From: Parcubacteria group bacterium GW2011_GWC1_41_7 | Lineage (GTDB): Bacteria > Patescibacteriota > Minisyncoccia > UBA6257 > HR35 | DNA length: 47,885 bases | Reading direction: 5' to 3' | Assembly: GCA_000997465.1 (NCBI GenBank) | Contig: LCBW01000003.1 | Location: forward strand, 1 to 47,885 | Part shown: piece by piece, positions 8,648 to 25,901 of the stretch | Layout of the letters: each line of letters starts with the position of its first letter | Position numbering within the stretch: the stretch's first letter is position 1 | Program-made: the position numbers and the translations under genes | Notes under the pieces: generated by a model | What the model was told of the DNA's origin: nothing | Seen by the model: only the letters and a program-made list of their open reading frames with translations | Database searches by the model: none

Positions 8648-8720
8648 GCCGAAGTAGCTCAGCTGGTAGAGCAGTCCCTTCGTAAGGGAAAGGTCGGAGG
8701 TTCAAGTCCTCTCTTCGGCT
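8648..8720 (+). tRNA. tRNA-Thr (anticodon CGU), CCA not encoded
   Basis: Hand fold. Acceptor GCCGAAG/CTTCGGC, D arm GCTC/GAGC, anticodon loop TTCGTAA, T arm GGAGG-TTCAAGT-CCTCT. By recollection of the E. coli sequence, the arm layout parallels E. coli tRNA-Thr(CGU). Confidence 0.85.
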
Positions 8721-8773
8721 CTCTTGATGAAACTCTCTCTCTTTCATCTTTTTCAAGGGCCGCACATCCTTGT

Positions 8774-9448
8774 ATGAAAAAAAAGCAACTTATTGTTTTC
8801 ATCTCTATCGTCGCGGGCATTGCGCTTTTGTTTGGAATTTTCAAACTTTTCAAAAGTCCTGCATCAAAAAATAAAAACGCAGATGCCTTTGCGGGTATTT
8901 TGCAACAAAGTGCAGCAGAGCAAAGAGCATATCGGGAAACTGAAAAATTAGCACTTGAATTTTTTCCTGAAGAATACAAAAAATTACAGGGAACGCTTCA
9001 AACAGAGGCGCAAGCTGGAATAGAGGAGGCAACAAAAGGATTTAACGCAATTGTTGATGAAATCAACCGGGGATCGCTTGCCGCAACAAGCCCCCTTGTT
9101 GATGCTATAAAAACGAACAAGCATAAAAGCAACGCGGAATATGTAAAAGAAATGACTACGGTTGTTGATAACATGAAGGGTGTTTCTTTTAATTTACGTA
9201 CCCCCGCGTCGCTTACTTCAGCCGGAACGCTGTACCGCCAAAGCGCGGTTGCGCTCTCCCGCATCCAGCCGCCGCCCAGTTTCTATAATGTGCATGTGGT
9301 ATGGGTGTCTTTGTTTGCAGGAAAAGGATATGCTCTGACGGAACTGGGCAAATCGCCCGATGCGGATCATCAATATTTTTTACATTCGTTTTTAAACCAA
9401 CTTATTGACCAAGAAGCTCAAGCGCTTGCACTTATGATTAAAAAATGA
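8774..9448 (+). CDS. bitopic membrane protein, first gene of the T4SS-like operon (unknown family)
   Basis: I trimmed the 8576 ORF to the ATG at 8774 because its N-terminus overlaps tRNA-Thr. MKKKQLIVFISIVAGIALLFGIF is a TM anchor. The stop overlaps the next start (ATGA at 9445). Confidence 0.6.
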   Translation: MKKKQLIVFISIVAGIALLFGIFKLFKSPASKNKNADAFAGILQQSAAEQRAYRETEKLALEFFPEEYKKLQGTLQTEAQAGIEEATKGFNAIVDEINRGSLAATSPLVDAIKTNKHKSNAEYVKEMTTVVDNMKGVSFNLRTPASLTSAGTLYRQSAVALSRIQPPPSFYNVHVVWVSLFAGKGYALTELGKSPDADHQYFLHSFLNQLIDQEAQALALMIKK

Positions 9449-12400
9449 ACTTTATAAAAAAAACGTTTACTTTTTTTATTCTTGCATCGCTCATTATTCC
9501 GCCATCTTTAGCGTCCGCACAAAGTAGTTTTGCGTCGGACGCGGTCGGTGCGGGATTGGGTATTTTAGATGCACTAGAGGGCAACGCCGACTGGCAGGAT
9601 CAATATCCCTATTTTTCTTTTCCTAATCCTTTTTATAATCCTGAATATAAAAATACCCATAACGGACAAAGAATTGCCCTTGACTTTTCTCTTCAGGCAG
9701 ATGGGGTGGATATTACACAGTCATACGACAATTCTTTTGTCATTGATGACAAGCCCCAAATTACCATTGACATTGGAGATTTGGTTCGAAGAAATAGGTT
9801 TAATAATTTTCCAAATTCATACGCACGCATAAGCATCACTCTTCTTCCTTTTATCCAAGGAGCCGATGGAATTGGGATTGTAGAAAATGGAACTCTTGTT
9901 CAGCCGCCGGGAAATCTTGCAAACGATACTCTTACGGTTTTAAACCCCACGCTCGGCGAAACAGCCGCGCCTTACTTGACCAATCTTGCAATGCCCTCTG
10001 GCGCAAGCCAAAATTTAGGCAGTGCAATTCAAAGTTTTGCGCTCAACCTTGCAATCTCTTCGGTTATGGGATTGATCACTGGAGAGGTGCCAGTAGGGGA
10101 CAAGGGGGCTATTAACGCTCTGGGAAAATCTTTTTCTGAAAATTTAAAGACACAGGTTGAACAAATGAAGCAACAGATGATGCAAGCACTTAAGGATGCC
10201 GGAAAATACATCATCTATAAAATCATCAATATTGTCACCACGCGCATCGCAAAATTGATAGGGGATTTGCAAATTAAAGATCCCAATATGTATATGCTGA
10301 TGAATATTTTAAGCGGTACGTTTGTGGGGATGCTCCAATATGCCCAAAACGGCTGCATAGACCCAATTGCAATGGGGTGTTTTCAAAGCGCCATTCGCGG
10401 AACAACAGGGGCTGTCTCAGGACAAAACAAAGATCCGGAGTTTCAGCAGCGCGCATCACTTTTGGCAACACGCGTGATTGGAAAAGTTGCGGCGTGTCCA
10501 ACGAGTGCGGTTGAGGGTATTTCTGAAAACGTTAGCATTCAATACGATAAAAATAAAGGTACTATTATTACCTATAAACCAAAGGGGCCATCGGATGGGA
10601 AAAAACTCGCGTTTCGCAATTTATTTTCCCGCGTTCCGTTTTTTGCGCAAGTTGTAAGTCAGGCAGATAGCCGAAGAGGGTGGATGCTTGCGCAAGCAGG
10701 TGATGCGGGAAGTGGCGGGGGTGACATGACCGATGAAAGCTGGAAATATGATGGAATTTGTACGCCCGGAATGGAATCCCAAGACCCCGAGTGCCCTAAA
10801 CAAAAAACTTCAAGCGGATTTGAGGACATGACTGCGTTTATCACCCAGGGGCTGGTGGGGCAACTGCAAGGAGCCGCATGCTCTGACCTTGCATCGGGAT
10901 TACAAGGCATGGCACAATCAAGCGCCGCCATGGCTGAAATTTCTGCCAGGTCAGATATTCAAACCGGTTTCAGGCCATCTGGAAAATGCACCACAAATCC
11001 GAATCTACCTAAAGAAAGTTGCCCGACTAACGCATGGCTTGATGAAACACCTCCGACAGTCATTGCGGGTATTGCCAGTAAAGTTGCAACAAATGATTTG
11101 GATCGCATGATGGCCGAACTTCAAAATCCCGATGCGCCAAACCCGATTGTGTCATGGTTTCGTAATTTTCTTTTTTCAAACATAAACCGTGTGTTCCAGG
11201 GATTTGAAAAGGTTGCCGAAAAACCACGCCAGGGGAGCGATGCGCTCAACGTTGACCCTGAAAAGGCGTGCGAAGGCGCTCGCGGATCGGGTGCAGGAGG
11301 AGGAAAATTTTATGATGCATGTGTGCAAGCCCATCAATCACAAATTGCCTTGGGAGGCGAATTTGAAAGTCAGGTACTTTGGCCCGAGGTGCAAAAACAA
11401 GTTGACACAGTTGCGGTTGACCTAGATAACACCGCATCATCACTTCGCGGACTTATTTCCATTAAAAATTCTTTTCGCGACCAACTGCAAAGCCCACATC
11501 CGGACTATCCAAGCGGCCCTACACTGGAGCTAGTTATTGATCCGACAGTCCTGGATGAATTTGCAAACATTGAGCAACGGCTTGGCGATGCAGAGGAACA
11601 AGTTACTCTTTTACAAAACAGCTTTAATGAAATCTTGCCCAGCGCAGAGTTAACAGCCCTTAATAATAGTCTTAATTCTCTGCAACAAACAAATCCCGCA
11701 ATCCAAGCAAGTACTACTGCGCTCACCCAAGAACAATCGCGCATCGCGTCAGACATTCAAGCAACAAAAACAGCCGTACAGCGCACCCTCTCTCCCTATA
11801 TGTCATTTGGGCAAAACCGAGTTATGGGAACGCTGTTTCAATCAGGCAATGGCGGCATCCTAGATATTATTGGTGACTCTGGGTACGGAATTGGGTCTTT
11901 TAGATCTGTTGCGAAACAAAATTTTCCGTTTTTTGAAATAAGCAATATGGATGTTGATTATGTTGATACGTTTTTGGCGGTGCGCGAAGAAGATATTCTT
12001 ACCTATCAAACCGATGGAAGTAATTTTTCTCGCCTTATGGGTATCTTTGCGCATTTTATGAACCAAGATATGGCTCCCGCGGGGCTTCAGGCAACGCAGG
12101 GGCCGCTTTTATCTGTTATATACAAATCAAGCGAGCTCATTTCGCAAGACCTTGAGGTGACTCCGCAGGCAGCAGCAGACATTCACACCATGAAGGAATT
12201 TCTTGCAAAGAAAAAACAAGCATACGAAAAAATAAAAACAATTGCGCAGTCACGAGGATGGATGGATACTCAAATTCAATATGCGGCCGCAAATAATGTT
12301 ACCGCACCTGAAATGCCCGTTTCTGAATATTTAAATGCAATGCTTCCGGCAGTATCTGGTGCACTTGACGCGCTCACTCAAATAGATAACACGGACTTCA

Positions 12401-12834
12401 TTACCAAGCAAAATAGAGTTGCGCAAATTACGCAAGAATTAGAAACCCTGCGCGGAACAGACAGCGCACGCATTGAGGCAGTACATGCTCGCATTATTGA
12501 GCTTATGCAATCAAACGAGCTTGATGCCGTAGCCGTTCAGGGAGAAATCAATGCCATACAAAAAGATATCGGGAGCGCAAAAAATACGCTTAGCTTGGCC
12601 CGAGAACAGTTATCTGCGTTTAGTGGAACCTTAGAGGGTGCAATTGGAAATATTCCAGAAGATCTTCTTCTTCCAATTGACGAAGAACTCTCCGCCCGTG
12701 CCCCCCAAGGCAATAGATTTTCAGTTATTCAAACAATCAAAAACGCATTTGCAAAGACAAAAATGTTTTTTGCGAACGTATTTGAGCTTATCACTTCGCC
12801 GTTTGCAAATCCAAGGCGCGTAAAATTAAAATGA
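9445..12834 (+). CDS. 1129-aa secreted giant protein (signal peptide, paired cysteines, coiled-coil C-terminal half)
   Basis: Signal peptide FFILASLIIPPSLASAQS. Spaced Cys pairs such as CIDPIAMGC, CTPGMESQDPEC and CTTNPNLPKESC. A Q/S/T/A-rich heptad-like region spans about residues 690-1080, followed by a short hydrophobic C-terminus. Confidence 0.7.
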   Translation: MNFIKKTFTFFILASLIIPPSLASAQSSFASDAVGAGLGILDALEGNADWQDQYPYFSFPNPFYNPEYKNTHNGQRIALDFSLQADGVDITQSYDNSFVIDDKPQITIDIGDLVRRNRFNNFPNSYARISITLLPFIQGADGIGIVENGTLVQPPGNLANDTLTVLNPTLGETAAPYLTNLAMPSGASQNLGSAIQSFALNLAISSVMGLITGEVPVGDKGAINALGKSFSENLKTQVEQMKQQMMQALKDAGKYIIYKIINIVTTRIAKLIGDLQIKDPNMYMLMNILSGTFVGMLQYAQNGCIDPIAMGCFQSAIRGTTGAVSGQNKDPEFQQRASLLATRVIGKVAACPTSAVEGISENVSIQYDKNKGTIITYKPKGPSDGKKLAFRNLFSRVPFFAQVVSQADSRRGWMLAQAGDAGSGGGDMTDESWKYDGICTPGMESQDPECPKQKTSSGFEDMTAFITQGLVGQLQGAACSDLASGLQGMAQSSAAMAEISARSDIQTGFRPSGKCTTNPNLPKESCPTNAWLDETPPTVIAGIASKVATNDLDRMMAELQNPDAPNPIVSWFRNFLFSNINRVFQGFEKVAEKPRQGSDALNVDPEKACEGARGSGAGGGKFYDACVQAHQSQIALGGEFESQVLWPEVQKQVDTVAVDLDNTASSLRGLISIKNSFRDQLQSPHPDYPSGPTLELVIDPTVLDEFANIEQRLGDAEEQVTLLQNSFNEILPSAELTALNNSLNSLQQTNPAIQASTTALTQEQSRIASDIQATKTAVQRTLSPYMSFGQNRVMGTLFQSGNGGILDIIGDSGYGIGSFRSVAKQNFPFFEISNMDVDYVDTFLAVREEDILTYQTDGSNFSRLMGIFAHFMNQDMAPAGLQATQGPLLSVIYKSSELISQDLEVTPQAAADIHTMKEFLAKKKQAYEKIKTIAQSRGWMDTQIQYAAANNVTAPEMPVSEYLNAMLPAVSGALDALTQIDNTDFITKQNRVAQITQELETLRGTDSARIEAVHARIIELMQSNELDAVAVQGEINAIQKDIGSAKNTLSLAREQLSAFSGTLEGAIGNIPEDLLLPIDEELSARAPQGNRFSVIQTIKNAFAKTKMFFANVFELITSPFANPRRVKLK

Positions 12835-14471
12835 CACAAAGAAAGCATATAAAAAATAGAGGTCTTGCCCCGCTTTTAATTGCGGCTGGTATTGGTGCAA
12901 TTGCAGTTATTGGCGGAGCGGCATTTGGAAGACCTATTTTAGATGCTGCCGGGCAGAGCATTTTAAATGGCATGCTGCATTTTTTGGATTTTGTGCTTCC
13001 TTTAGTACGTCATGTGTTTTGGTGGCTTGGGGGAATATCGGCAAATGCAATCAACACGTTTGTGTTGATGAACCCATTTGATAGCGCGACACTTTCCCCG
13101 TTCTTATGGGAAACATTCAAAAATATCGCGTATGTGGTGATTATTTTCTTTTCGCTTTATGCGGGGTTTATGTGGATTGTTGGACGCGACTCTGCGGCAA
13201 AGCCAATGATTTTTAAACTTCTTATTATTGCGCTTTTGATAAATTTCTCATTCTTTATCGCAAAAGAGCTATTTTTTGTTTCACATGTAGTAACAAAATC
13301 ATTGGCATGTTCATTTGGACAAAACGAAAAAGTTCAACCTGGTGGAGAACCTTGCTCACAGGTTGGAACTGCAATATATACAGGGCTTTTAATGTTTGGT
13401 GATAACAATCTTGTTGCGGGAATTAAGGGTGATGTTGAAAAACTTTCCTCTGCTGAATCTTCAAGCCGCCTCTCTCAGCTTATCTTTGCGCATTTAGTTG
13501 CGTTTGTACTTTTTTTCATATTTACATCCATTATGATGATCCTGGCTGGCATGTTTGTGGGAAGATTTCTCATTGTTTCATTTTTAGTGGGTATTTTACC
13601 GCTTGCGATTATTTCTTGGGCAAGCCCCAAAAACAATGGTCATTGGGAAGAGTGGTCAAAAAAATATTTAACCTGGCTAACCAACATTCCAACTCTTTTG
13701 CTTTTTATTCTGGTTGGATTTTCTATTGTGGGAGTAGGTTTAGGAGATAATTTTCGGGACAAACTTCAGGCAAACGTTGATACACGTATTTTAATGGGAA
13801 ACAACGCCAACTCCAACGTTGACGCAAACGCGGTAAAAGGATACGCGGGGCTTATCCGCTTCTTTTTCTTAGTAGGATATTATGCGTTTGCAATTGTCTA
13901 TGCTCAACAGGTAGGAGGAAAAGCGGCAAAATTCGGGCATGACTTTGCCGTAGGAAGCTATCTCGCCCTTGGAGGCGCGGTGCGTGGAGCCGCAGTGTTT
14001 AAGCCGACGCGAAATCTTTTAGGAGATCGTCTTGAAAAAACCGGAAAATGGATTGAAGAAAAAAACCCGGCATTTTTAGGTATTGCAATGCGTGGAATGG
14101 GAACCAAAATGCGAGAGGCAGGAAAGGGAATGCTTGCTCAAAAAAGAGAACGCATTGAAAAAGACGCAAAACAGTTTGTTGAGGCTAATAAAGGAGACCC
14201 ACAAAAATTAGGACAATACCTTAAAAATGCCCGAGGAGATCAACGACTTGTTATAGCGAAGGTTATTGGGGAAAAATTGCAACGCCACGAGGAACTTCAA
14301 GCGGTTGTTGACCATTTAGACCAAGGTGAATTAAGCGACTTTTTATCAGACGAGCGCGTACGAAAAGCATTAGGAACCCGAACTGGCATTGGAAAATTTT
14401 CTAGTGCAACCCGTAAGGGAACTCCCGAAGGATTTGAGGAGGCAGCAAAAATAATACTGTTGTTGCGTTAG
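12831..14471 (+). CDS. VirB6/TrbL-like polytopic membrane protein
   Basis: 546 aa with 7 or more hydrophobic helices and a long charged C-terminal tail, an architecture typical of TrbL/VirB6. ATGA overlap with the upstream ORF. Confidence 0.55.
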   Translation: MTQRKHIKNRGLAPLLIAAGIGAIAVIGGAAFGRPILDAAGQSILNGMLHFLDFVLPLVRHVFWWLGGISANAINTFVLMNPFDSATLSPFLWETFKNIAYVVIIFFSLYAGFMWIVGRDSAAKPMIFKLLIIALLINFSFFIAKELFFVSHVVTKSLACSFGQNEKVQPGGEPCSQVGTAIYTGLLMFGDNNLVAGIKGDVEKLSSAESSSRLSQLIFAHLVAFVLFFIFTSIMMILAGMFVGRFLIVSFLVGILPLAIISWASPKNNGHWEEWSKKYLTWLTNIPTLLLFILVGFSIVGVGLGDNFRDKLQANVDTRILMGNNANSNVDANAVKGYAGLIRFFFLVGYYAFAIVYAQQVGGKAAKFGHDFAVGSYLALGGAVRGAAVFKPTRNLLGDRLEKTGKWIEEKNPAFLGIAMRGMGTKMREAGKGMLAQKRERIEKDAKQFVEANKGDPQKLGQYLKNARGDQRLVIAKVIGEKLQRHEELQAVVDHLDQGELSDFLSDERVRKALGTRTGIGKFSSATRKGTPEGFEEAAKIILLLR

Positions 14472-14566
14472 CGGCAGAGCGCGCGGGGTCGGAACGAAAC
14501 AGAACAAAGATTCGACAATGGTGTTTAAATTTATCTCAAAACCTTCCTGTGCTTCGCGAATCAGGA

Positions 14567-15010
14567 ATGATGCAAGATAATGACATTGTAAATGATATAA
14601 GAAACTCTCCCGTCATGAATGTTCTCAGTAAAGTTCAACGTTTTAATCAAGCAGCTCAAAATATAACAACGGACATACGAAATGCCATTTTACAACAAAA
14701 TCCTCCGTTTATACCGATAGAGCAAATTATAAGAACAGCAACCGAAGGAATTAATGCCCAATTCCCTGAAGGAAGAGATGCTCGAAGTAGACAGACGCGC
14801 TCACGACTCTTAGGCGCCTTAGCGATGTTACAGGGATCACAACACACGCAATTCCTTCGTGAACGCGATCTTATTGATACTCCATTTCAACCCGGGGAGG
14901 CACGTGGAGGCCCAGGAAAATCTGATATTACAGGGGATGATGAAGATGACGGAGGGGGGGGTAGTCGTGGAGGAAGAGATAGGAGCGACGCAGGTCCACC
15001 GGGTGATTAA
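14567..15010 (+). CDS. soluble protein with a Gly/Asp/Arg-rich tail, unknown function
   Basis: ORF with an ATG at 14567 (an alternative GTG lies at 14549). No TM segment. C-terminus reads GDDEDDGGGGSRGGRDRSDAGPPGD. Confidence 0.45.
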   Translation: MMQDNDIVNDIRNSPVMNVLSKVQRFNQAAQNITTDIRNAILQQNPPFIPIEQIIRTATEGINAQFPEGRDARSRQTRSRLLGALAMLQGSQHTQFLRERDLIDTPFQPGEARGGPGKSDITGDDEDDGGGGSRGGRDRSDAGPPGD

Positions 15011-15021
15011 TTATCTTATAT

Positions 15022-16011
15022 ATGAAAGATTTTGCAGACCTATACAATCATTCACCCTTAGATGTACAGAATTTTTTGTATTCTGATGATTTTTGGTTTT
15101 TTGTCGATGAAGCTGAGAAAAAATTTTCCATTGAAGAAGAACAGAGCATTCAATTCGCATATTTGCTTCAAGATTTTGCAATGGGAGCTACTGAATTTGA
15201 TAACCAAGCGGGGCTTACGGAAGCCCTAAAAACTGATGTGGGTATTCGCGCTGATCTTGCTCCTTCGCTTGCGTATATGATTTGGACTCGCTTTAAGCCA
15301 CTTTTTGAACACCTTAAAAAACAAGCGGAAGAAAAGCAAGAAGCAAGCAGGCAAGAACAACTGCGATCGGTTATTGCGCAATCGCAAAAAAGAGAATCGC
15401 TTTTGAAGGCGGCGCAAGAAGAGCAAATGCAACAGATGCGCAAAAGTGCGCTTGATTTAAACCGCGTTGCAGGCGTTGCAACGTCGCGCGTCCCCATCCC
15501 CACACGCATTAAAATTCCCATAGAACACGAAGATGTTGGAGAAAAAATTTCGCCTGTGCGCCCAAAACAAGAAGAGGAGAAAATTATTATTACAGAGTTC
15601 CCAGACGATGAAAGGGTTGTCCACCCTACGACACAGACACCTCAGCCGCACTTTACTGAAAAACAAAAAGATATTCCTCAGAATTTTATTCCCTCATCTC
15701 AATTTCATGCACCGGAAAACCCACAGGATGAAATGGATCAATTGCAATATCGCGTTATAGGAATGCCTAAAAATCAAAATGCGGCGCCGATGGAGAGCCG
15801 CAAGCGCAGACCTGAAGGGGCTGTGGCGCCCAATGCGGTATCGCAAGCAACTGTACTACAAAAAAAATCCGAAGAGATACTTCATTTTCCACCCGCAAAA
15901 GAAATTCCGCAGTCGCCTCCATCAAACGAGACTCCGCCTACAGCCACAGTTGATTTACATACATTGCAAAAAAAAGATTCGGATAGCGCCGTTGATCTTT
16001 CTGGCAAATAA
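15022..16011 (+). CDS. protein with a folded N-terminal domain and a long Q/E/P-rich low-complexity region, unknown function
   Basis: 329-aa ORF in the operon. No TM or signal peptide is evident. Confidence 0.5.
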   Translation: MKDFADLYNHSPLDVQNFLYSDDFWFFVDEAEKKFSIEEEQSIQFAYLLQDFAMGATEFDNQAGLTEALKTDVGIRADLAPSLAYMIWTRFKPLFEHLKKQAEEKQEASRQEQLRSVIAQSQKRESLLKAAQEEQMQQMRKSALDLNRVAGVATSRVPIPTRIKIPIEHEDVGEKISPVRPKQEEEKIIITEFPDDERVVHPTTQTPQPHFTEKQKDIPQNFIPSSQFHAPENPQDEMDQLQYRVIGMPKNQNAAPMESRKRRPEGAVAPNAVSQATVLQKKSEEILHFPPAKEIPQSPPSNETPPTATVDLHTLQKKDSDSAVDLSGK

Positions 16012-16089
16012 TTCAGTTTAATTGATCGTCTTGCCTGTATAATAAAAATATAGTTTTTGTTTTATTATTTTCACTTTTTACTTTTTATC

Positions 16090-16677
16090 ATGCGCTTCAA
16101 CGTTCCCCAATACATTACTATTGAAGATAAACTGCTGGGATTAATTACCTTTAAACAACTTTTTTTATTGCTGGGTGCTTTTATCGCAAGTTACACCACC
16201 TTTAAAATCGTTGGTGGTCCCATTGCGTGGATTGTCACCCTCGTAAGCTTTCTCATTGCCGGCTCTTTGGGATTTATGCGGGTAAATGGGAAATCGCTTT
16301 TATCCGCCTTGCCCAGAGTTTTGAGCTATTTTTTAGGAGGGAAACAGTACTTTTGGCAAGCATCCGCACCCACATCAACAAAAACAATAGAAGTTTCCGT
16401 TATTCATAAATATTTTCTCCCACAAGAGCATGAGACCGAATCTTTTGGTATAGAAAAAAATGCAGTCCCTGAAATTTCCGAAGAACCCTTACCCGAAATG
16501 CCAAAAATCCCGATCCCCAAGACAATTCCCCAAAGACAAAAAGAAGAAGGCGTTACCGAGTTTAAAAAAACTCAGCCCCTGGTGCGTTATATTCAATATG
16601 CCCATAAGCACGGACAAAATCCGGTTAATCCGTATCGCTATTTTCCGCTTCCTCATTTTCCTAAAAGACAATGGTAA
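16090..16677 (+). CDS. PrgI-family (VirB3-like) T4SS membrane protein
   Basis: MRFNVPQYITIEDKLLGLITFKQLFLLLGAF followed by two TM helices, which is the PrgI-family N-terminal signature. ATG at 16090 preferred over the TTG at 16057. Confidence 0.6.
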   Translation: MRFNVPQYITIEDKLLGLITFKQLFLLLGAFIASYTTFKIVGGPIAWIVTLVSFLIAGSLGFMRVNGKSLLSALPRVLSYFLGGKQYFWQASAPTSTKTIEVSVIHKYFLPQEHETESFGIEKNAVPEISEEPLPEMPKIPIPKTIPQRQKEEGVTEFKKTQPLVRYIQYAHKHGQNPVNPYRYFPLPHFPKRQW

Positions 16678-17300
16678 GTTCTGTTTTGCAACTTATAAAA
16701 GTAAAAAATATAAAAGATGATGTTTTTGTTATGGACAACAATGCCTTGCGCGCGGTACTTGCGGTGCCGGGTATCAACTTTTCACTCCTTACGGATACTG
16801 AAAAAGAAATTGTTATTTCACAGTTTAAGGAACTTTTAGATGGTCTTGACTTTCCACTCCAATTTCTTATTGTGTCGCGTTTTGCAAATACGGAAAACTA
16901 TATCAATGTCTTGCGCGTAAAGTTAGGCGACGAAACTGAACCGCTTATCCGGTTGCAACTTGAAGATTACATTAAATTTATTCGTGAGTATACCGAAACG
17001 CATAAAGTTATGAAAAAAATCTTTTATGTTGTTGTGCCGTATGAACCCTCTGTTATTCAAACAGGATCGTTTCTTAGCAAAAAACAGACGCAAAAAAACG
17101 AGGCGTACTTTCAACAACTTGAGCAGTTGGAGACGCGCGTTATTTACATTTCAGAAAAATTATCTGGTATTGGGCTGCAGCCCATTCGATTAAATAATGG
17201 AGAGCTTACACAGCTTCTTTTTGAAATGTACAATCCGTCCATCAGGTGGGGATCTGCTCCGATTGAATTATTTGAGGAACTTATGCAAAAAATCCAATGA
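16671..17300 (+). CDS. VirB4-type ATPase, N-terminal domain encoded as a separate ORF
   Basis: IKDDVFVMDNNALRAVLAVPGINFSLLTDTEKEIVISQFKELLDGLDFPLQFLIVSR resembles the VirB4/TraC/PrgJ N-terminal domain. Ends in ATGA, overlapping the next ORF. Confidence 0.55.
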   Translation: MVSSVLQLIKVKNIKDDVFVMDNNALRAVLAVPGINFSLLTDTEKEIVISQFKELLDGLDFPLQFLIVSRFANTENYINVLRVKLGDETEPLIRLQLEDYIKFIREYTETHKVMKKIFYVVVPYEPSVIQTGSFLSKKQTQKNEAYFQQLEQLETRVIYISEKLSGIGLQPIRLNNGELTQLLFEMYNPSIRWGSAPIELFEELMQKIQ

Positions 17301-19123
17301 AGCTGCCACATTTTTCTTTTGGAAAAAAATCTAGCGGGGGACAAAAAATAAATATTCCCACTGAAGAAACCGATTATGGATTTTCCAAAATAAAAGAAAT
17401 TATCGCCCCCCCAGGAGCGCTTTTCAACTCACAAGATTTCCAAGTGGGGGAAGTATATGGAAAAAATATTCTTATTTTAGCATATCCAAAATTTCTTTTT
17501 GCGGGATGGCTTGAAAAAATACTAGAAATCCAAGAGGCATTTAATCTATCTCTTTTTGCTATTCCTATGGATGTCCCGACGGTACTCAAAACCCTTGAGA
17601 AGCAACTTGCGCGCGTTGAAGCGCAAATTGAAGAGCGCGAAGAGCGGGGGCTCGTGCGATCCCCGGAACTAGGAACTGCGTATGAGGACATTGAAACACT
17701 CCGCGACTCGCTCGTGCAAGCAAGAGAAAAAATGATGCAGGTTGGGTTGTATATGACTGTATATAATGAATCAAAAGAGGAAATTTCCATTCAAGAGAAA
17801 GAAATGGTGAAGATGCTTGAAAGCTCTCTTATTTTAGCAAAGCCGGTTATTTTTCAGCAAGAAGATGCGTTTATTTCAACTCTTCCTTTGGGGTTGGACA
17901 AAATGGAATCGCATTATCAGATGAACTCTTCGCCTGCATCGTCGTTTTTCCCATTTATCTCTTCAGAACTATCAACTGATAATGGAACGCTTTTAGGAAT
18001 TAACTTGCAAGATAATAGCTTGGTTATTTTTGACCGGTTTGCGTTTGAAAACGCGCACATGGTAACATTTGCCAGATCAGGAGCTGGAAAATCATACACC
18101 TCAAAAATTGAAATGATGCGCAATTTGATGATGGGTATTGATGTTATTGCGCTTGATCCTGAAAATGAGTATCGCTCTATTGCGGAAATTTACGGAGGAA
18201 GCTTTATTCCGGTTTCTTTAAAATCAGAATTTCACCTTAATCCTTTTGATCTTCCGCCTCCCCTTAAAGACGAGGAACCTATTGAACTATTTAAAGAGAA
18301 AGTTGCCGATGTGCTCGGGCTCATTGAACTTCTCATTGGAGAAAAACTCCCCTCAGACCAATTGGTAATATTTGATCGCGCAATCAACCAAACATATGCA
18401 TCGTTTAATATTTTACCTGAGAGCGATTTTTCAAAAGTTGAATTATTCCCAACCTTAAACGATTTTGCAAAAGTGCTTCGCGGGGTAGAGGGAGGTGATG
18501 CGCTTGCTGAAAAATTGTATCCATTTACTGAAGGAAGCTTCAACGGATTTATCAACCAACAATCTAATGTTGAGCTCAATAAACGCATTGTCGTGTTTGG
18601 ATTTCGGGATCTTGTTGAAGAGCTTCGTCCCATTGGCATGTATATTGTGCTTAACTATGTTATGAACCGCATCCGAAAAGAAGTAAAGCGAAGAATTGTG
18701 GTACTTGATGAAGCATGGTGGCTTATGAAACAAGAGGCCGCGGCAATGTTTTTACTTAACTCTATTAAGCGCGGACGCAAATATATGCTTGGAATCTCAA
18801 GTATTACCCAAGACGTTGAGGACTTTTTAAATTCTCCTTATGGAAAGCCGATCATTACTAATTCGGGCCTTGTATTTCTTATGAAACAATCTCCCGCAAC
18901 TATTGATCTTGTGGGGCAGGTGTTTGCGCTCTCAGACGGTGAAAAAAAATTTCTCTTGCAAGCAGAACGGGGGAGGGGTATTCTTATTGCAGGATTAAAA
19001 CGCGTACCTCTTTTTGTACTTGCTTCCTACGCAGAAGATCAAATCATCCGATCAACCCCCGAACAGCTTTTGCTTCTCCAGCAATCTGAAAAAAATGCAG
19101 AAAATACACCAAGCTCCTCATAA
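17297..19123 (+). CDS. VirB4-type T4SS ATPase, middle and C-terminal ATPase domains
   Basis: Walker A is FARSGAGKSYT and Walker B is RIVVLDEAWWLM. 209 + 608 aa equals the size of a normal VirB4. Confidence 0.8.
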   Translation: MKLPHFSFGKKSSGGQKINIPTEETDYGFSKIKEIIAPPGALFNSQDFQVGEVYGKNILILAYPKFLFAGWLEKILEIQEAFNLSLFAIPMDVPTVLKTLEKQLARVEAQIEEREERGLVRSPELGTAYEDIETLRDSLVQAREKMMQVGLYMTVYNESKEEISIQEKEMVKMLESSLILAKPVIFQQEDAFISTLPLGLDKMESHYQMNSSPASSFFPFISSELSTDNGTLLGINLQDNSLVIFDRFAFENAHMVTFARSGAGKSYTSKIEMMRNLMMGIDVIALDPENEYRSIAEIYGGSFIPVSLKSEFHLNPFDLPPPLKDEEPIELFKEKVADVLGLIELLIGEKLPSDQLVIFDRAINQTYASFNILPESDFSKVELFPTLNDFAKVLRGVEGGDALAEKLYPFTEGSFNGFINQQSNVELNKRIVVFGFRDLVEELRPIGMYIVLNYVMNRIRKEVKRRIVVLDEAWWLMKQEAAAMFLLNSIKRGRKYMLGISSITQDVEDFLNSPYGKPIITNSGLVFLMKQSPATIDLVGQVFALSDGEKKFLLQAERGRGILIAGLKRVPLFVLASYAEDQIIRSTPEQLLLLQQSEKNAENTPSSS

Positions 19124-19817
19124 CTCTTCTTCTCAAAATCAACGCCCGAAACGCATCAAAGACGAATTTCATCCAGAGCGCTCACTTTTACAGCAACAAG
19201 GCCAAACTGATAGCGAACACGTAAATTCTCCCTCGGGCACACCAACTTCGGGACGCACCCCCGAGCAACAAAGAGGGCAAAAAATATACGATTCTCAAGA
19301 AAATCGCGGTGATGACATTAAGCCGTTTTCTTCTTTGCAAAAAAATGCAGGATCTGATGAACAACAGGGGAAAACCCCCGTTGTTGCTCTTTTTTTTACC
19401 CTTTGGGCAGGGCTTTCCCTTGATATTGTTGAAATCATATCAGCTGGATTTGACCTGACGATTATCGCCGGTATTCTTATTCGACTGGTGACGCTTCCTA
19501 TTGAAGCGCTCTATGTGCTTTTATTCACCTTTGTATGTTGGAGCCAAAAAATTCCTTCGGAAGAACGCAATGTCGCAAATTTGATCCGCGGAACCGCCAT
19601 GTTGTTTCAGGGAGTTGAGCTTTCGGCAAATTTTTTTCCTCCAGGACTCGCACTTATTGAAATTCTTCCCTTAAAAACACTTTCGGTTATTATGATTTTT
19701 TTCCTTCGTCCCCTTATTAAAAAACTTGCTCCCAATATTCCTGGTGGAGAAGAAGCACTTGCTACAATAAAAAATGTTTCTTCAAAAATTCCAGACCCCA
19801 AAAAAGTTGGGAAATAA
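19095..19817 (+). CDS. membrane protein with a disordered N-terminus, unknown family
   Basis: ATG at 19095 (the start is uncertain and overlaps the VirB4 end by 29 nt). Polar Q/S/P-rich first ~110 aa, then 4-5 hydrophobic helices. Confidence 0.5.
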   Translation: MQKIHQAPHNSSSQNQRPKRIKDEFHPERSLLQQQGQTDSEHVNSPSGTPTSGRTPEQQRGQKIYDSQENRGDDIKPFSSLQKNAGSDEQQGKTPVVALFFTLWAGLSLDIVEIISAGFDLTIIAGILIRLVTLPIEALYVLLFTFVCWSQKIPSEERNVANLIRGTAMLFQGVELSANFFPPGLALIEILPLKTLSVIMIFFLRPLIKKLAPNIPGGEEALATIKNVSSKIPDPKKVGK

Positions 19818-19840
19818 TTGAGGGGATTTATAATAGAGAT

Positions 19841-20473
19841 ATGAGAAATTGCCTATTTTTTTTCGTTGCATTCATTTTATTCTTTTCGGCTTCGCTTGCA
19901 CATGCCCAAACGCTTGATTTTTTTTATGCGTTTGCAAAAAAAACATCCGGGGGGATTCTTTTGGGGGTTGAAACGCAAGCACAAAAAGACGGAATTCTTA
20001 TTCCGCCGGAACAGCTTAGTTATAAATGGAATTTATATGCCGGGACGACAATCAAAAAATCAACGCTTTCTCCTGTTTTAAAAATTATGACCCCTCCGGG
20101 AACCACTGAGGTTTCAGGATCTGTGACGATCGCGGCATACCGATCGGGATTTGAAGCAAGCCGCAATTTTTCGCTTTTCCTCCCTGGCCCTCGCGCAAGT
20201 ATTGTCAAATATGACCCTTCTTTAAATCTTTTTCTTCCTCTTTCGTTGCCGCTTCTTCGCGGACAAATGATCGGGGCTTTAGTTTTTTCATTTTCGGTTC
20301 CTGATAACCAGTTGTCTTATTCTTGGAAAATAGGAAATGCTTCGCTCGCCTCTTCTCAATTTTTACAAATTGCCGCCAATCAGCTCTCAATTGGAGACGG
20401 AACGAGTGTTACTGTTTCAAATCCTTCATACTCACGCGAATTTGCTCAAGATCAAAAAACAATTATTGAGTAA
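19841..20473 (+). CDS. secreted protein with two internal beta-sandwich-like repeats
   Basis: Signal peptide FFFVAFILFFSASLAHAQ. Internal repeat LSYKWNLYAG / LSYSWKIGNA. Confidence 0.55.
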   Translation: MRNCLFFFVAFILFFSASLAHAQTLDFFYAFAKKTSGGILLGVETQAQKDGILIPPEQLSYKWNLYAGTTIKKSTLSPVLKIMTPPGTTEVSGSVTIAAYRSGFEASRNFSLFLPGPRASIVKYDPSLNLFLPLSLPLLRGQMIGALVFSFSVPDNQLSYSWKIGNASLASSQFLQIAANQLSIGDGTSVTVSNPSYSREFAQDQKTIIE

Positions 20474-21507
20474 TGCCATTTTTCTCCTTTGTATACGCAC
20501 AAAACCAAGAAAGTGCCGTAGGGCTTATTCAGCAGTACTGCACAAATTCAGCAGGTATTCAACAATGCCTACAGGGGCTGTATAACGCAGGAGTTATGCT
20601 TGCTATTGCAATCGCATTTCTCATGGTGGTGTATGGGGCGTTCAAATATATTATCGGTGCGGCGGGAAACACAAAAGCTGCAGGAAAACAACACGTACAA
20701 AATGCCGTTATGGGTGTTGCGTTTATCTTTATTTCAGGAACTATTTTATATTGGGTAAACCCTTCGATTTTCAATGCGGAGCTTATTTTATACAATGTAA
20801 AAAAACTAAAGGTTCCTACGGCTGGAATAACCCTCAATTCATATGGCGGGGCTGGTGGAGGAAGCGCTTCTTCTGGAAATCTTTCATATACGGAACCCCC
20901 AGCGCCATCTGGAACTCCTATATATGATGGAGAAATTTGGGTAACTAATTATTACGGCACAACCGAGGGGGAGGGAGAACAGAGGGGTGGATATCCATAC
21001 TCTTCTCCACGCACTTTTCCGGCAAATTTTTTACTACAGGGAAGTGGTTTGTGCGAAGGAGGTTCATTTCTCTCAAAAAGAAATGAACATACCGGAAGCC
21101 AGATTAATCAAAAAATCTATGCACTTTGTAACGGCTATAATGGCTGGATTAATGTTGGTTCAGGAAGTGGACCCCAAAAAGTTTCTGGTCCCACAGAGGC
21201 CTGTGGAAATATTATAGGGCTTGGGGTTGTTGCTGTTCCTGCGGCGTGGCATACCTCAATTGTTGAATTTTACAGCGGCACTACAGTAAAAAGATTTTAT
21301 GGAACAGATCGAGGGGGCGCCATCAACGACCATCACATTGATATTTATACAGGAGTTGGATTTGAGGCCATTGCCGCACTCCCTTCGTTTGCACAAAGTC
21401 TTGGGCTGCGTACAAGCGGAGGTAAATATTATTTACGCGGAAAAGTTTACAAACTAAATAATGGGTGCAATGCTTCTGAATTAATGCCCCTAAAAAATTC
21501 GTCATGA
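20473..21507 (+). CDS. fusion of a VirB2/TrbC-type pilin hairpin with a 3D-domain (MltA/YuiC-like) peptidoglycan hydrolase
   Basis: The N-terminus has two TM helices joined by a short basic loop (GVMLAIAIAFLMVVYGAFKYIIGAAGNTKAAGKQHVQNAVMGVAFIFISGTILYWV). The C-terminus has GTDRGGAINDHHIDIY, the 3D-domain signature. Confidence 0.6.
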   Translation: MPFFSFVYAQNQESAVGLIQQYCTNSAGIQQCLQGLYNAGVMLAIAIAFLMVVYGAFKYIIGAAGNTKAAGKQHVQNAVMGVAFIFISGTILYWVNPSIFNAELILYNVKKLKVPTAGITLNSYGGAGGGSASSGNLSYTEPPAPSGTPIYDGEIWVTNYYGTTEGEGEQRGGYPYSSPRTFPANFLLQGSGLCEGGSFLSKRNEHTGSQINQKIYALCNGYNGWINVGSGSGPQKVSGPTEACGNIIGLGVVAVPAAWHTSIVEFYSGTTVKRFYGTDRGGAINDHHIDIYTGVGFEAIAALPSFAQSLGLRTSGGKYYLRGKVYKLNNGCNASELMPLKNSS

Positions 21508-22220
21508 AAAAAATATTATTTTTATTTATTTTATTGACAATTATATTCATTCATAACCCCGCGTATGCGGCAAAAAATGCCCTTCCACAGGAAATTCGTT
21601 CGTTTACAATCAATTTAGATCGTACTGAAAAAAATATTATTTTCGACCCAAATTACCCTAACCCCATAGCATTATCATCGGAAAGGCCCCTTAAAAATAA
21701 CTTGGGAAATTTTACAATTTTTCTAAAAGACATTTCCGGAAATACTGTTTACACAGAAAACATTGACATCCCTTTTGGAAAATCATTAGTATATTTACCT
21801 TATTTTTTAAATAATAGAGGACTGGGTATTTCGTACCTTGAAAGATCGTACTCCTTTGATCTTTCTTCCTTTGCTTTATGTAATGAGGATGCTCAATGCA
21901 ATTTTATGGAAGAATTTTCCACCGCATGTCCGAAAGATTGCGCAAATGCAAAAAATCCCCTATATCCTCGCTCGCCCTATTTTTTTACAGAAAATGAGAT
22001 TGAACTTCCATCTCTTTTTCAAGAGTCTCAATTTTTGCAAGAATTACTTACCCCATCTTTTGTGAATTCTTCATCCCCCCTCACTGAAAAAATTTTCATA
22101 CCTTCATATACTACTTCAACCGCACGCAGAGCAACTGCTTCAAATTTATGGCTACTAGGCGGAGCAATCATTGCGCTTGTTGCCGTACTTATGGGTATTT
22201 CTTGGTACAATAAAAAATAA
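21504..22220 (+). CDS. secreted protein with a C-terminal TM anchor, unknown family
   Basis: Signal peptide ILFLFILLTIIFIHNPAYAA. C-terminal LWLLGGAIIALVAVLMGISWYNKK. ATGA overlap upstream. Confidence 0.55.
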   Translation: MKKILFLFILLTIIFIHNPAYAAKNALPQEIRSFTINLDRTEKNIIFDPNYPNPIALSSERPLKNNLGNFTIFLKDISGNTVYTENIDIPFGKSLVYLPYFLNNRGLGISYLERSYSFDLSSFALCNEDAQCNFMEEFSTACPKDCANAKNPLYPRSPYFFTENEIELPSLFQESQFLQELLTPSFVNSSSPLTEKIFIPSYTTSTARRATASNLWLLGGAIIALVAVLMGISWYNKK

Positions 22221-23344
22221 TGGTAAAAAAAATATTTTTTGCGCTTGGTATTGTCATCCTTATTGCACTTATTGCTCTTTTTATTATGAATAGGAGGCCT
22301 GCACAGCCGATTCCGGATATTTTAACCCTCCCCCAAAAAGATAATCGCCCTTTATCAGAAATTCCAGAAACAACCGGCATTCCTTCGCTTTCAGTCACTT
22401 CTACGCAGCTTGGGGGGCTCTCTGATGAAAATATCGCCACATCTTCAAGTGACTCTATCCGGCCTATTTTTGACAGACCTATGGGATTTTTAGCAGTGGA
22501 TTATCCTGATGTATATGCGTTTGACTTCCAAGAAAAAAGCGTAAAAGTTTTTAATGTAGAAGAAAAAACGTATAGAGAATTACTCCGTGATAAAAATATA
22601 CGGTCCATTCTTTTTTCGCCCTCCAAGGGCACCGTATTGGTTGAAAAAAACATCAACAGCAGAAGCCGATTCTTTTTAATAGATCTTGTACAAGATACCA
22701 CCGCAAGCGTTGACGCATTTGCACGATCATTTGTATGGGATTTAAAAGATACCCTTTGGTATCACTATTCAAATAATTCATCCGTAAACTACATTGGGAC
22801 AATCCAAAACAAAAAATCTTCTCGGGTTATTTCCGTTGGGTTTCCCGATCCTGTCTTTGCGCCATTGCGCGGGAATATATTTATTGCCAACAAAACAAAT
22901 TCGCCTTTATTTTTTATCAATGTGACCACGCAAAAACGCCGGATTCTTGTTTCCCAGCAGTCATTTTTTTCGCTCCTCGCAAATAACACCTATGTATTTG
23001 CAAGTTACGGATCTGAAAATGCAAAAAAAAGCTCAATTATCAATGCTGCCGGAACTATTGTAAAAACATTTCCATGGGGAACCCTTTCTCAAAAATGTAC
23101 CTTTGATCGGATGCTTGTCTGCGGGGTTTCAGTTGATCAATTATCTGTTGGATCGCCCGAAGATTGGGAGATGATGAAGCGACCCTTTTTCGATAAAATT
23201 GTTATATATGATATAGAACGAGATACCGCGCGTGAGATAGAATTACCGGACAGATTTGATGTGGTATCTCCTTCGATAACCCCGTTAGGGATTATTTTTT
23301 GGAACCGGATTGATGCCCAAGCGTATCTCGTACCAATGAAATAA
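22220..23344 (+). CDS. N-terminally anchored extracytoplasmic protein, unknown family
   Basis: TM helix FFALGIVILIALIALFIM, then about 340 aa that look beta-rich. Last gene of the operon. Its 3' end overlaps the convergent yidC by 60 nt. Confidence 0.5.
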   Translation: MVKKIFFALGIVILIALIALFIMNRRPAQPIPDILTLPQKDNRPLSEIPETTGIPSLSVTSTQLGGLSDENIATSSSDSIRPIFDRPMGFLAVDYPDVYAFDFQEKSVKVFNVEEKTYRELLRDKNIRSILFSPSKGTVLVEKNINSRSRFFLIDLVQDTTASVDAFARSFVWDLKDTLWYHYSNNSSVNYIGTIQNKKSSRVISVGFPDPVFAPLRGNIFIANKTNSPLFFINVTTQKRRILVSQQSFFSLLANNTYVFASYGSENAKKSSIINAAGTIVKTFPWGTLSQKCTFDRMLVCGVSVDQLSVGSPEDWEMMKRPFFDKIVIYDIERDTAREIELPDRFDVVSPSITPLGIIFWNRIDAQAYLVPMK

Positions 23345-23917
23345 TTTTCTCTCTATAATTGTCCAAAGCATAATTGTTGCCCAGTAGAGTGTATATGCTG
23401 CAGGGAAGGTAAGAATAAGAAGGCCCACAACGCCCACAATAATAAATCCCGCCTTTCTTGTTTCCTTCGGTTCAGTCATAATAAAAAGTAACTGTAGCGC
23501 GATAGTAAGAGCGCCCAACAGAAGGTTGGGCGTTTTCACATCTATAAAACCAAACGCGATAAGCGGTAATGAGCTTTTTACAATATCCCCCAGCACCGCA
23601 AACATTGCAAAAATAATCGGCAAAGGAATCATCTGGATAATAAAATTACGAAACGGATTGAATTTTTCTTCTTCGTAAATACCCGATATGATTTCTGCCT
23701 GCTTTACCATGTCTTTTATCCCCTTTGTGCGCTCTTTCATTTTTACCTGAATGGCGCGCAATTTATCAGATTCTTTGTGCTGAATATAATACAAAGGGAA
23801 AAGAGGAACGCGAATTAAAAGAGAAAACACCACAATGGCTATTCCGGGATCTCCTGTCCAATTATGAACAAGCGCAAAAAAAAGAAGGAGGGGTTGTACA
23901 AGATAAAGCCGAAACAT
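23285..23917 (-). CDS. yidC: YidC/Oxa1-family membrane protein insertase (short form)
   Basis: GIAIVVFSLLIRVPLFPL motif, 5 TM helices, and the conserved position next to rnpA-rpmH. Confidence 0.8.
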   Translation of the reverse strand: MFRLYLVQPLLLFFALVHNWTGDPGIAIVVFSLLIRVPLFPLYYIQHKESDKLRAIQVKMKERTKGIKDMVKQAEIISGIYEEEKFNPFRNFIIQMIPLPIIFAMFAVLGDIVKSSLPLIAFGFIDVKTPNLLLGALTIALQLLFIMTEPKETRKAGFIIVGVVGLLILTFPAAYTLYWATIMLWTIIERKLFHWYEIRLGINPVPKNNP

Positions 23918-23920
23918 AAA

Positions 23921-24229
23921 TTAAGAAATAAGTTCACATAAAATTTCTTTCTGCGTAAGGTCCTTTATGTCTTTGTGAGGAACAATAACATAATCGGCTG
24001 TGGAAAAATTGTGTATAGACATTCGTATGGTTTCATATATGCGCCTGCGAATTCTATTTCGCGCGACGGCACTTTTACAGAGAGATTTTGGTACGGGAAT
24101 GGAAAATCGAGGGTATCCTATATTATTTGACTTTTGAAAAATGCGAAGGTGTTGCCTATTTTTCTTTATAGAGTCCTTAAAAAACGCTGAAAAATTAAAA
24201 TTTCGTAACCGATATTTTGCGGCAAGCAT
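23921..24229 (-). CDS. rnpA: RNase P protein component
   Basis: KYRLRN... and AVARNRIRRRIYE motifs. Synteny rpmH-rnpA-yidC. Confidence 0.85.
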   Translation of the reverse strand: MLAAKYRLRNFNFSAFFKDSIKKNRQHLRIFQKSNNIGYPRFSIPVPKSLCKSAVARNRIRRRIYETIRMSIHNFSTADYVIVPHKDIKDLTQKEILCELIS

Positions 24230-24236
24230 CCGGATG

Positions 24237-24353
24237 TTACGGGGTTACTTTTTTCCTGCCCTTTCTTCTTCGCAGAAGCACTACTTTTTTTCCTGCTGTT
24301 GTTTTTTTTCGGGCAAGGAAACCAGACACTCTTTTTCTTTTTTTATTTGTCAT
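24237..24353 (-). CDS. rpmH: 50S ribosomal protein L34
   Basis: I trimmed the 67-aa ORF to MTNKKRKRVSGFLARKKTTAGKKVVLLRRRKGRKKVTP (38 aa), a typical L34 sequence. Confidence 0.85.
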   Translation of the reverse strand: MTNKKRKRVSGFLARKKTTAGKKVVLLRRRKGRKKVTP

Positions 24354-24445
24354 GGGAATAAGAGTATAACAGAATTCGCCGTGCAATGGTAGGGCACCCC
24401 CTTGTATTTTTATTGTAAGTATAATAAAGTACTTACACACTATAC

Positions 24446-25798: not shown

Positions 25799-25869
25799 TT
25801 CAGTTATTACCCACTACTTATTAAGATATTATTTATAAAAAATAATAGGTATTGCGCCTTATTTTTCTC

Positions 25870-25886: not shown

Positions 25887-25901
25887 CCCCTTATTATTAC
25901 T

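Follow-up and report, generated by a model that had tools for sequence, protein, structure and literature searches.

A type IV secretion-like gene cluster beside the replication origin of a Paceibacteria genome, probably serving host contact and not conjugation

What is a type IV secretion system (T4SS) for when its genes lie next to the chromosomal replication origin and the surrounding DNA contains no coupling protein, relaxase or integrase? This question is raised by a 47,885-nt stretch of DNA (hereafter the window) from Parcubacteria group bacterium GW2011_GWC1_41_7, a member of the class Paceibacteria whose assembly, GCA_000997465.1, comprises 488 kb. The cluster concerned occupies positions 8774-23344; its ORFs (open reading frames), all on the plus strand, are designated g01-g13 and correspond to the GenBank genes UU76_C0003G0010-G0022 (exact protein matches). 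A first-pass annotation, made from the sequence alone, had described it as a conjugation-independent, T4SS- or pilus-like envelope machine of an episymbiotic bacterium with a small genome, and both the taxon and the published reading of such loci support this description. We consider it likely that the cluster encodes a chromosomal T4SS of the Patescibacteria clade, derived from the MPF-FATA type (MPF, mating-pair formation), which was unlinked from conjugation and gained VirB2-like pilins, and whose role lies in contact or macromolecule exchange with a host cell, not in conjugation.

We compared the cluster with 80 loci around relatives of its VirB4 (one-genome-per-species bacterial assemblies of Paceibacteria/Minisyncoccia, the lineage-labelled ones being all Patescibacteria), and built the protein families across these loci by iterative hidden Markov model (HMM) searches. 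The g08 product scores 347.7 bits against the NCBIfam equivalog model NF045971 (conju_CD1110, a conjugal ATPase; cut-off 325; profile positions 179-734 of 752), with further matches to the Pfam families P-loop_TraG (E = 8.9e-21), AAA_10, CagE_TrbE_VirB and DUF87. The Walker A (FARSGAGKS) and Walker B (VVLDEAW) motifs from which a VirB4 had been proposed both lie in this ORF, and motifs and CD1110 score together identify a VirB4 of the monoderm (FATA) type. The protein is identical to KKS19214.1 and has more than 7,800 relatives at E <= 1e-50; the organism-labelled ones retrieved are all Patescibacteria. In Table S3 of the survey by Quinonero-Coronel et al. 2025, KKS19214 appears as VirB4 in cluster HPC_22015 together with other patescibacterial VirB4s (PMC12102498).

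The product of g07 aligns with positions 106-279 (of 894) of VirB4_plasma, the NCBIfam model for the VirB4 of Mycoplasma integrative and conjugative elements (ICEs), at E = 3.8e-10, and with the NCBIfam model TrsD at 2.5e-5, under the curated cut-off. Judged from these alignments, it supplies the VirB4 N-terminus that is absent from g08. TrsD is present in 75 of the 80 loci. Five of the loci (L004, L057, L064, L065 and L069) encode TrsD and VirB4 as one fused protein of 790-803 aa, and about 70 other related genomes keep two genes, the split being the common state in this group. The g06 product reaches 22.8 bits (E = 1.4e-4) against Pfam PrgI, under the cut-off of 27, but all 44 aligned members of its family match that model (best 5.7e-14), which confirms at family level the PrgI/VirB3-like protein named in the first-pass annotation. 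The VirB6/TrbL-like polytopic protein named there holds at profile level only: g03 has no direct match in Pfam or NCBIfam, its family profile matches TrwI/VirB6 of plasmid R388 (PDB 7o3v) at E = 9.1e-5, and Pfam TrbL is matched by 4 of 38 family members.

The g11 product had been read as a VirB2-type pilin hairpin fused to a 3D-domain wall hydrolase. Its direct scores lie under the Pfam cut-offs, at 17.8 bits against T4SS_pilin (PF18895) and, for the C-terminal part, at 20.9 bits against the 3D domain PF06725 (cut-off 23.8; signature DRGGAINDHHIDIY); the MltA model NF008366 is matched at 1.6e-3. The fusion is nevertheless borne out, the pilin part through the family HMM: PF18895 is matched by 53 of the 65 family members, and an HMM built from the relatives of g11 matches it at 1.1e-21. 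A VirB2-like pilin is thus found near virB4, and a second one in the window scores above the Pfam cut-off (see below). The Lys-rich loop between the two transmembrane (TM) helices of g11 is compatible with VirB2 topology, with both termini outside, and on this TM prediction the enzyme domain would therefore lie on the wall side. Neither the SLT nor the CHAP catalytic domain of the VirB1 family was found in g11, which carries the 3D/MltA-like motif in its place; judged from its motifs, the wall domain is a putative functional analogue of VirB1, not a homologue.

An exhaustive search with the g11 C-terminal domain against 1.84 billion representatives returned four other proteins of the same architecture (E = 4.6e-10 to 4.2e-5), all with a pilin-like N-terminus. 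The pilin::3D architecture is rare but real. Single-sequence searches with g11 and g13 in a set of 5.8 billion proteins yielded almost nothing beyond the queries themselves. Proteins 66-69% identical to the g11 hairpin bear YkuD or VanY domains instead of 3D, and two further hairpin relatives carry Peptidase_M23. Judged from these sequences, the hairpin acts as a module tethering interchangeable wall enzymes, an arrangement that cuts both ways: it supports a VirB1-like role of g11 in the cluster, and it shows that T4SS loci are not the only place where the "pilin" domain occurs. Genes for a pilin-hairpin::YkuD and a pilin-hairpin::VanY protein stand in tandem in L083 (833-2632; also in L085 and L086), their N-termini being 66-75% identical to g11. 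They adjoin mraZ, rsmH, ftsI and a Mur ligase gene on another contig from the same aquifer.

The second pilin-like array of the window lies 16 kb from the cluster, immediately after a gene for a solute-binding protein. Its first gene (39019-39510) scores 40.2 bits against PF18895, above the cut-off, and is VirB2 entry 461 in Table S3 (PMC12102498). A local pilin HMM matches this gene, the following one (39431-39907) and the C-terminus of the 460-aa product of the third (39907-41289) at 2.1e-14, 1.4e-3 and 4.7e-6, respectively.

A test of synteny, as proposed in the first-pass annotation, shows the gene order to be conserved across the 80 related genomes, in which the best relative of the g08 VirB4 is 72% identical and the others are 44-50% identical. 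The recurring order is: a secreted protein (27 loci), VirB6 (47), the g05 family (40 of 44), PrgI (72), TrsD, VirB4 (80), the g09 family (33), the g10 family (41), a pilin-like protein (52-55) and the g13 family (43), followed by yidC, rnpA, dnaA, dnaN and a gene for a class A penicillin-binding protein (PBP). The full order from VirB6 to dnaN recurs in dozens of these genomes. Among the 47 related loci with at least 8 kb of sequence downstream of VirB4, 37 have yidC-rnpA-dnaA-dnaN after it, the median distance from VirB4 to dnaA being 5.1 kb.

In the window itself, rnpA, dnaA, dnaN and DnaA boxes follow the cluster at 0.6-2.5 kb, in agreement with the origin-proximal position already recognised in the first-pass annotation. 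Perfect boxes (TTATCCACA) are found at 25734 and 25870, and boxes with one mismatch at 25878 and 25949. They fall within the end of dnaA, the spacer that separates it from dnaN, and the very start of dnaN, and the end of the cluster is therefore about 2.4 kb from the likely origin. This call is based on gene context and DnaA boxes; across the window, the GC skew shows no clean switch at dnaA.

The layout of the cluster (Table 1) departs from the initial description in the number of its genes. Fourteen consecutive ORFs had been claimed; the ORF listing of the window contains 13 long plus-strand ORFs in this interval, and the native number is probably 12. The same aquifer population has been re-assembled twice independently, as L081 (51.2-kb scaffold from ENA) and L082. 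Both are otherwise 99.97-100% identical to the window but have 70 nt (L081:7087-7156) in place of the AAA at 14450-14452, i.e. 67 nt more, and this addition joins g03 and g04 into one ORF of 748 aa. The L082 contig terminates precisely at this junction, which suggests either an assembly problem or a population variant. Moreover, relatives of g03 are 522-899 aa long, and in L001, the closest relative, the position of g04 is not occupied by an ORF of its own. The two ORFs are thus probably one VirB6-like gene that was artificially split in the deposited sequence, and users of the GenBank record should be cautious in this respect.

The start/stop overlaps reported in the first-pass annotation are all present (ATGA at 9445, 12831, 17297 and 21504; TAATG at 20473 and 22220; ATGGTAA at 16671), and many genes of the cluster are translationally coupled. 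The start of the first gene at ATG 8774 is likewise correct, since the alternative listed ORF, from TTG 8576, runs across the tRNA-Thr gene. Transcription of the cluster is directed away from that tRNA gene and toward the origin region. A scan for promoters and terminators gave sites no commoner than in shuffled sequences (41 versus 35.2 +/- 7.0 and 23 versus 18.8 +/- 4.8, respectively) and is therefore uninformative on operon structure. A signal peptide or TM segments are predicted in 9 of the 13 products.

Table 1. Features of the cluster and of its surroundings in the window
Feature	Position	Strand	Description	Basis or remark
tRNA-Thr(CGU)	8648..8721	+	Upstream boundary of the cluster, 52 nt before g01	ARAGORN; Rfam RF00005, 65.5 bits
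g01	8774..9448	+	N-terminal TM anchor (residues 5-23), 224 aa, no assigned family	Homologue only in closest relative L001
g02	9445..12834	+	Secreted, coiled-coil-rich, 1129 aa, translationally coupled to the VirB6-like gene	Signal-peptide-like N-terminus
g03	12831..14471	+	VirB6-like polytopic membrane protein, at least 6 TM segments	Family in 47 related loci
g04	14549..15010	+	Probably the cytoplasmic C-terminal tail of g03, not a separate gene	Comparison with L081 and L082
g05	15022..16011	+	Cytoplasmic, conserved N-domain and Pro/Gln-rich tail	Family between VirB6 and PrgI
g06	16090..16677	+	PrgI/VirB3-like, 2 TM segments	ATG 16090 is the start called in L081
g07	16671..17300	+	TrsD-like, VirB4 N-terminal domain as a polypeptide of its own	209 aa; directly before virB4 and overlapping it
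g08	17297..19123	+	VirB4 ATPase, motor of the system	NF045971 conju_CD1110; 608 aa
g09	19095..19817	+	Small polytopic protein, 3 TM segments, disordered N-terminus	Family directly after VirB4
g10	19841..20473	+	Secreted, beta-rich, signal peptide	Family between VirB4 and the pilin gene
g11	20473..21507	+	T4SS-pilin-like TM hairpin fused to a 3D/MltA-like wall-hydrolase domain	Hairpin about aa 25-118; motif aa 279-292
g12	21504..22220	+	Secreted, Cys-rich module, C-terminal TM anchor	TM prediction
g13	22220..23344	+	TolB-like (PD40) beta-propeller with an N-terminal anchor; ends the cluster	Family in 43 loci
Origin context: yidC(-), rnpA(-), dnaA(+), dnaN(+)	23285..27032	mixed	Replication-origin gene context	Pfam; DnaA-box scan
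Second pilin-like array	39019..41289	+	Genes 39019-39510, 39431-39907 (weak) and the C-terminus of 39907-41289	

About eight ORFs of the cluster had been left without a family that could be named. This holds for g01, g02 and g12, but not for g07, the TrsD-like protein, nor for g05, g09, g10 and g13, whose families occupy the same positions in 33-43 related loci. Against their family HMMs, g05, g09 and g10 score 9.6e-7, 1.4e-8 and 1.5e-6, respectively. Neither these three families nor the secreted family upstream of VirB6 gave a significant match in sequence and profile searches of the PDB, and Pfam gave no family match to the three. Pfam searches with the pooled accessory families returned scattered Ig/PKD matches only, the few PKD-like ones most plausibly coming from members of the g10 family. 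A single-sequence AlphaFold2 (AF2) model of g10 is unusable (pLDDT 36.9). The identity of the g13 family, whose gene usually stands right after the pilin gene, is clearer: PD40 is matched by 22 of its 39 members, the family profile matches TolB crystal structures at E = 1.8e-21, and an HMM built without g13, from the other 38, matches it at 1.9e-17.

No match to g01 was found in Pfam or NCBIfam, and none to g02 in PDB or Pfam. The only recognisable homologue of g02, in L001, is 24-25% identical to it. An alignment of g02 with the secreted family upstream of VirB6 has an hhalign probability of 4.5%, and the two have the motif GF..KC...TP..V...D.D in common; on these sequences it is possible that g02 is a divergent member of that family. 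The g12 gene, which has the lowest GC content of the cluster (34.2%), is the sole one without a relative in the 80 loci, has no match in Pfam or NCBIfam, and lies between the genes for the pilin and the propeller, which are otherwise neighbours. Either it was inserted recently, or it may encode a surface protein that evolves fast.

The flanks of the cluster consist of housekeeping genes (leuS, yidC, rnpA, dnaA, dnaN, a PBP gene, pilB, ftsH and gyrA). Likewise close to the origin, about 3.5 kb past dnaN, is a gene (29387-31060) for an ATPase of PilB/T2SSE type, the motor of a type IV pilus or of type II secretion; it diverges from the class A PBP gene and converges with ftsH. Shortly before the cluster, the start of a UPF0102/NERD-type nuclease gene (7850-8203) is overlapped by a free-standing ORF for a LAGLIDADG homing endonuclease (7396-7866). 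Next to the nuclease gene L081 has a DivIC-like gene, at window positions 8207-8482. A tRNA-Ile gene with the anticodon UAU (1688-1762) indicates an unusual bacterial reading of AUA; most bacteria read this codon with a lysidine-modified CAU tRNA.

Could the cluster be what remains of a conjugative element, either degraded or resident, with its relaxase, coupling protein and integrase lost or located elsewhere? Several observations would fit: the g08 VirB4 matches a family of conjugative transposons as an equivalog, a tRNA gene borders the cluster, and further T4SS genes occur elsewhere in the assembly. According to Table S3, the 488-kb metagenome-assembled genome also contains a second TrsD/VirB4/VirB2 set (KKS18358-18362), another VirB2, two PrgF matches and a homologue of the type IV coupling protein (T4CP), KKS19340, which is flagged as not near virB4 (identifiers listed include KKS17803; PMC12102498). 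Two VirB4 sets in one assembly are uncommon, 2,474 VirB4s having been counted in 2,417 genomes (PMC12102498), and the second set could represent a paralogous system or a mixed bin. The claim that the system is without a coupling protein is thus valid for the locus and the 47.9-kb window, but not for the genome. On the other hand, Pfam scans of the window ORFs of at least 100 aa (except a few short, overlapping or internal ones) detected no family of relaxases, VirD4/TcpA-type coupling proteins, VirB7/9/10 or recombinases, in agreement with the first-pass annotation, and the rows of Table S3 available for GCA_000997465.1 include no relaxase (PMC12102498). No att-like direct repeat of the tRNA-Thr region was found elsewhere in the window, and the GC content of the cluster (41.7%) shows no compositional step relative to the flanks (40.7% and 39.4%); on these two grounds, the reading as a genomic island or ICE was rejected. 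Finally, the same gene order beside yidC-rnpA-dnaA-dnaN, conserved at a VirB4 identity of 44-50%, points to long vertical residence. The cluster is therefore an old chromosomal resident and not a recent island, and its origin as an ICE remnant is very improbable.

A rather unlikely proposal, which is in fact a sub-case of the reading as a host-contact T4SS and differs from it in the direction of transport, is that the machine imports nucleic acids, as a reverse T4SS comparable to Helicobacter ComB or archaeal Ced, and feeds on host DNA or RNA. Patescibacteria lack de novo nucleotide synthesis (PMC10633639), a 2026 preprint describes a parasite of the Minisyncoccota that feeds on the RNA of its host, reports possible T4SS pili where the two cells meet and treats VirB4 as a marker of macromolecule transfer, and import would require no relaxase. 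The match of g08 to the DNA-import ATPase CedB (E = 3.1e-13) is weak, since its 49.2 bits compare with a cut-off of 700 and with the 347.7 bits of the CD1110 type, and CedD is matched at 19 bits against a cut-off of 600. Moreover, the cluster contains no ComEC-like or nuclease partner, and partners of the CedA/ComB kind were not recognised in it. In Southlakia epibionticum the competence channel is dispensable (comEC is not essential for growth on the host), whereas the T4SS is essential, which neither proves nor excludes import by the T4SS (PMC12857230). The low CedB and CedD scores lower the case for Ced/ComB-type membership; import as a function is still possible. It is also unlikely that g11, and perhaps g13, serve cell-wall or envelope maintenance near the origin and do not belong to the T4SS, the "pilin" hairpin being a mere membrane anchor for wall enzymes. 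This idea draws on the hairpin relatives with YkuD or VanY beside division and wall genes, on the 7-9 kb contigs recovered for them, which carry no VirB4, on the function of TolB as an envelope-maintenance protein in diderms, and on the presence of yidC and a class A PBP gene next to the cluster. It is opposed by the position of the pilin-like and TolB-like genes, which follow VirB4 on the same strand and with tiny gaps in 43-55 related loci, by the overlapping start and stop codons that chain g11 and g13 to their neighbours, and by the essentiality of the pilin genes in the homologous cluster of Saccharibacteria (PMC10633639).

Some points weigh against a host-contact T4SS. The T4CP homologue elsewhere in the assembly leaves DNA transfer possible, and, because relatives of its hairpin sit beside division and wall genes and thus outside T4SS loci, g11 could serve general wall metabolism. 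Several assignments depend on transitive, family-level evidence: PrgI, pilin and 3D score under the Pfam cut-offs, and VirB6 has no direct match. A VirB8-like protein was not identified in the cluster at the sequence level; for g01, the best candidate for this bitopic protein of the NTF2 fold by size and topology, the single-sequence AF2 model is unusable (pLDDT 40.9), and VirB8 is seldom detectable in the phylum Patescibacteria (PMC12102498). The experimental evidence comes from Saccharibacteria and not from the class Paceibacteria, and the macromolecules presumed to be transported may move in either direction.

If the cluster is a host-contact T4SS, its observed anatomy and conservation could be combined with canonical T4SS biology as follows. 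The VirB4 of g08 and its split-off N-domain (g07) would dock on a membrane platform formed by PrgI/VirB3 (g06) and VirB6 (g03 plus g04). VirB4 would power the extraction of pilin-like hairpins (g11 and the array at 39-41 kb) from the membrane into a pilus or conduit, while the 3D-type lytic domain, tethered by the hairpin of g11, would open the cell wall locally, in a VirB1-like manner. The conserved exported or anchored proteins g02, g09 and g10, together with the TolB-like propeller g13, would form the extracellular part, and g05, without a TM segment, is probably an accessory protein of the cytoplasm. The likeliest role would be contact with a host cell and transfer of macromolecules to or from it, not transfer of plasmids or ICEs; its essentiality would be an extrapolation from Saccharibacteria. 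A bolder version, which we regard as quite unlikely, is that Paceibacteria have added to the VirB3/4/6 core a class-specific extracellular module, in which the pilin hairpin displays interchangeable wall enzymes (3D, YkuD, VanY, M23) that also breach the wall of the host. Such a module may comprise the secreted protein upstream of VirB6, the three unnamed conserved families and the membrane-anchored TolB-like propeller. If this were true, a wall-cutting or wall-remodelling head would be part of the pilus or conduit itself, directed at the wall of the host and not only at that of the parasite.

Few candidate machines could account for the way in which Patescibacteria, ultra-small and with crippled biosynthesis, exploit their hosts, and T4SS clusters like this one are among those few. 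The kind of system has been known since 2023-2025 and the genome has already been surveyed, and the locus adds no new principle. Its additions are modest: a gene order conserved over 80 related genomes, a set of four to five accessory families without names, which includes the TolB-like propeller and offers targets for structure prediction and genetics, and a pilin module with interchangeable wall enzymes. Of remaining value are these conserved families, the pilin module with its enzymes and a gene-by-gene map for Paceibacteria that includes components not flagged by the published HMM screen.

Among known systems, the T4SSs of Gram-positive MPF-FATA type (trs of pGO1, prg of pCF10, the CD1110 type of Clostridioides difficile conjugative transposons, and the Mycoplasma ICE) resemble the cluster in a VirB4 above the CD1110 cut-off, in a wall hydrolase, in the absence of the VirB7/9/10 outer-membrane core and, in the case of pGO1, in the order TrsC/PrgI-TrsD-VirB4. 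Unlike them, the cluster has no relaxase, T4CP, PrgB-type surface adhesin or recognisable VirB8-like protein, it has a fixed chromosomal place at the origin instead of residing on a mobile element, its hydrolase is of 3D/MltA type and not SLT/CHAP, and it has the VirB2-like pilins that the Gram-positive systems lack (PMC12857230). Bordetella Ptl and Brucella VirB are likewise T4SSs without a coupling protein in the locus and with a non-conjugative use (PMC12102498; PMC12857230), but they belong to diderms, are of MPF-T type with VirB7-11 and transport known proteins, whereas the present cluster belongs to a monoderm envelope.

Much closer are the systems of Patescibacteria, which a 2025 review presents as notable newcomers to the T4SS superfamily (PMC12857230); in a 2026 preprint, tubular structures that may be T4SS pili are reported from the contact zone of a member of the Minisyncoccota and its host. 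In the survey of 3,035 Patescibacteria genomes by Quinonero-Coronel et al. 2025, 2,425 VirB4s form one clade nested in MPF-FATA, TrsD, PrgI, VirB6 and VirB2-like pilins are widespread, relaxases are almost absent, and the genes are often located near dnaA, dnaN and rnpA (PMC12102498). The cluster shares with this clade a VirB4 with adjacent TrsD, PrgI/VirB3, VirB6 and VirB2-like pilins, as well as adjoining dnaA/dnaN/rnpA genes and the absence of a relaxase or T4CP nearby. GCA_000997465.1 is part of that dataset, and Table S3 lists KKS19213 (FATA_TrsD, g07), KKS19214 and the distal pilin, while PrgI (g06), VirB6 (g03) and the proximal pilin::3D fusion (g11) are unflagged at the locus (PMC12102498). 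The main text and the supplements consulted mention neither PD40, TolB or a propeller nor the 3D domain, and leave the g05, g09 and g10 families unnamed (PMC12102498).

The nearest experimentally studied counterpart is the cluster SEML1_0006-0019 of S. epibionticum (class Saccharimonadia), shown by Wang et al. 2023 to be essential, pilins included, for epibiotic growth (PMC10633639); essentiality is thus experimental there, and the Paceibacteria system is known from its genes. In S. epibionticum, six tandem PF18895 pilins accompany a separate lysozyme-like protein, in place of one pilin::3D fusion and a distal array, and the gene rows available for that cluster include no TolB-like propeller. 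Both clusters lack a recognisable coupling protein or relaxase (PMC10633639). They are alike in most of their parts: SEML1_0006-0019 likewise has about 14 genes, lies within a few kb of the chromosome start and encodes the same core of VirB6-like, PrgI, TrsD-like and VirB4 proteins, together with a wall hydrolase, PF18895 pilins and a protein of about 1,100 aa (PMC10633639).

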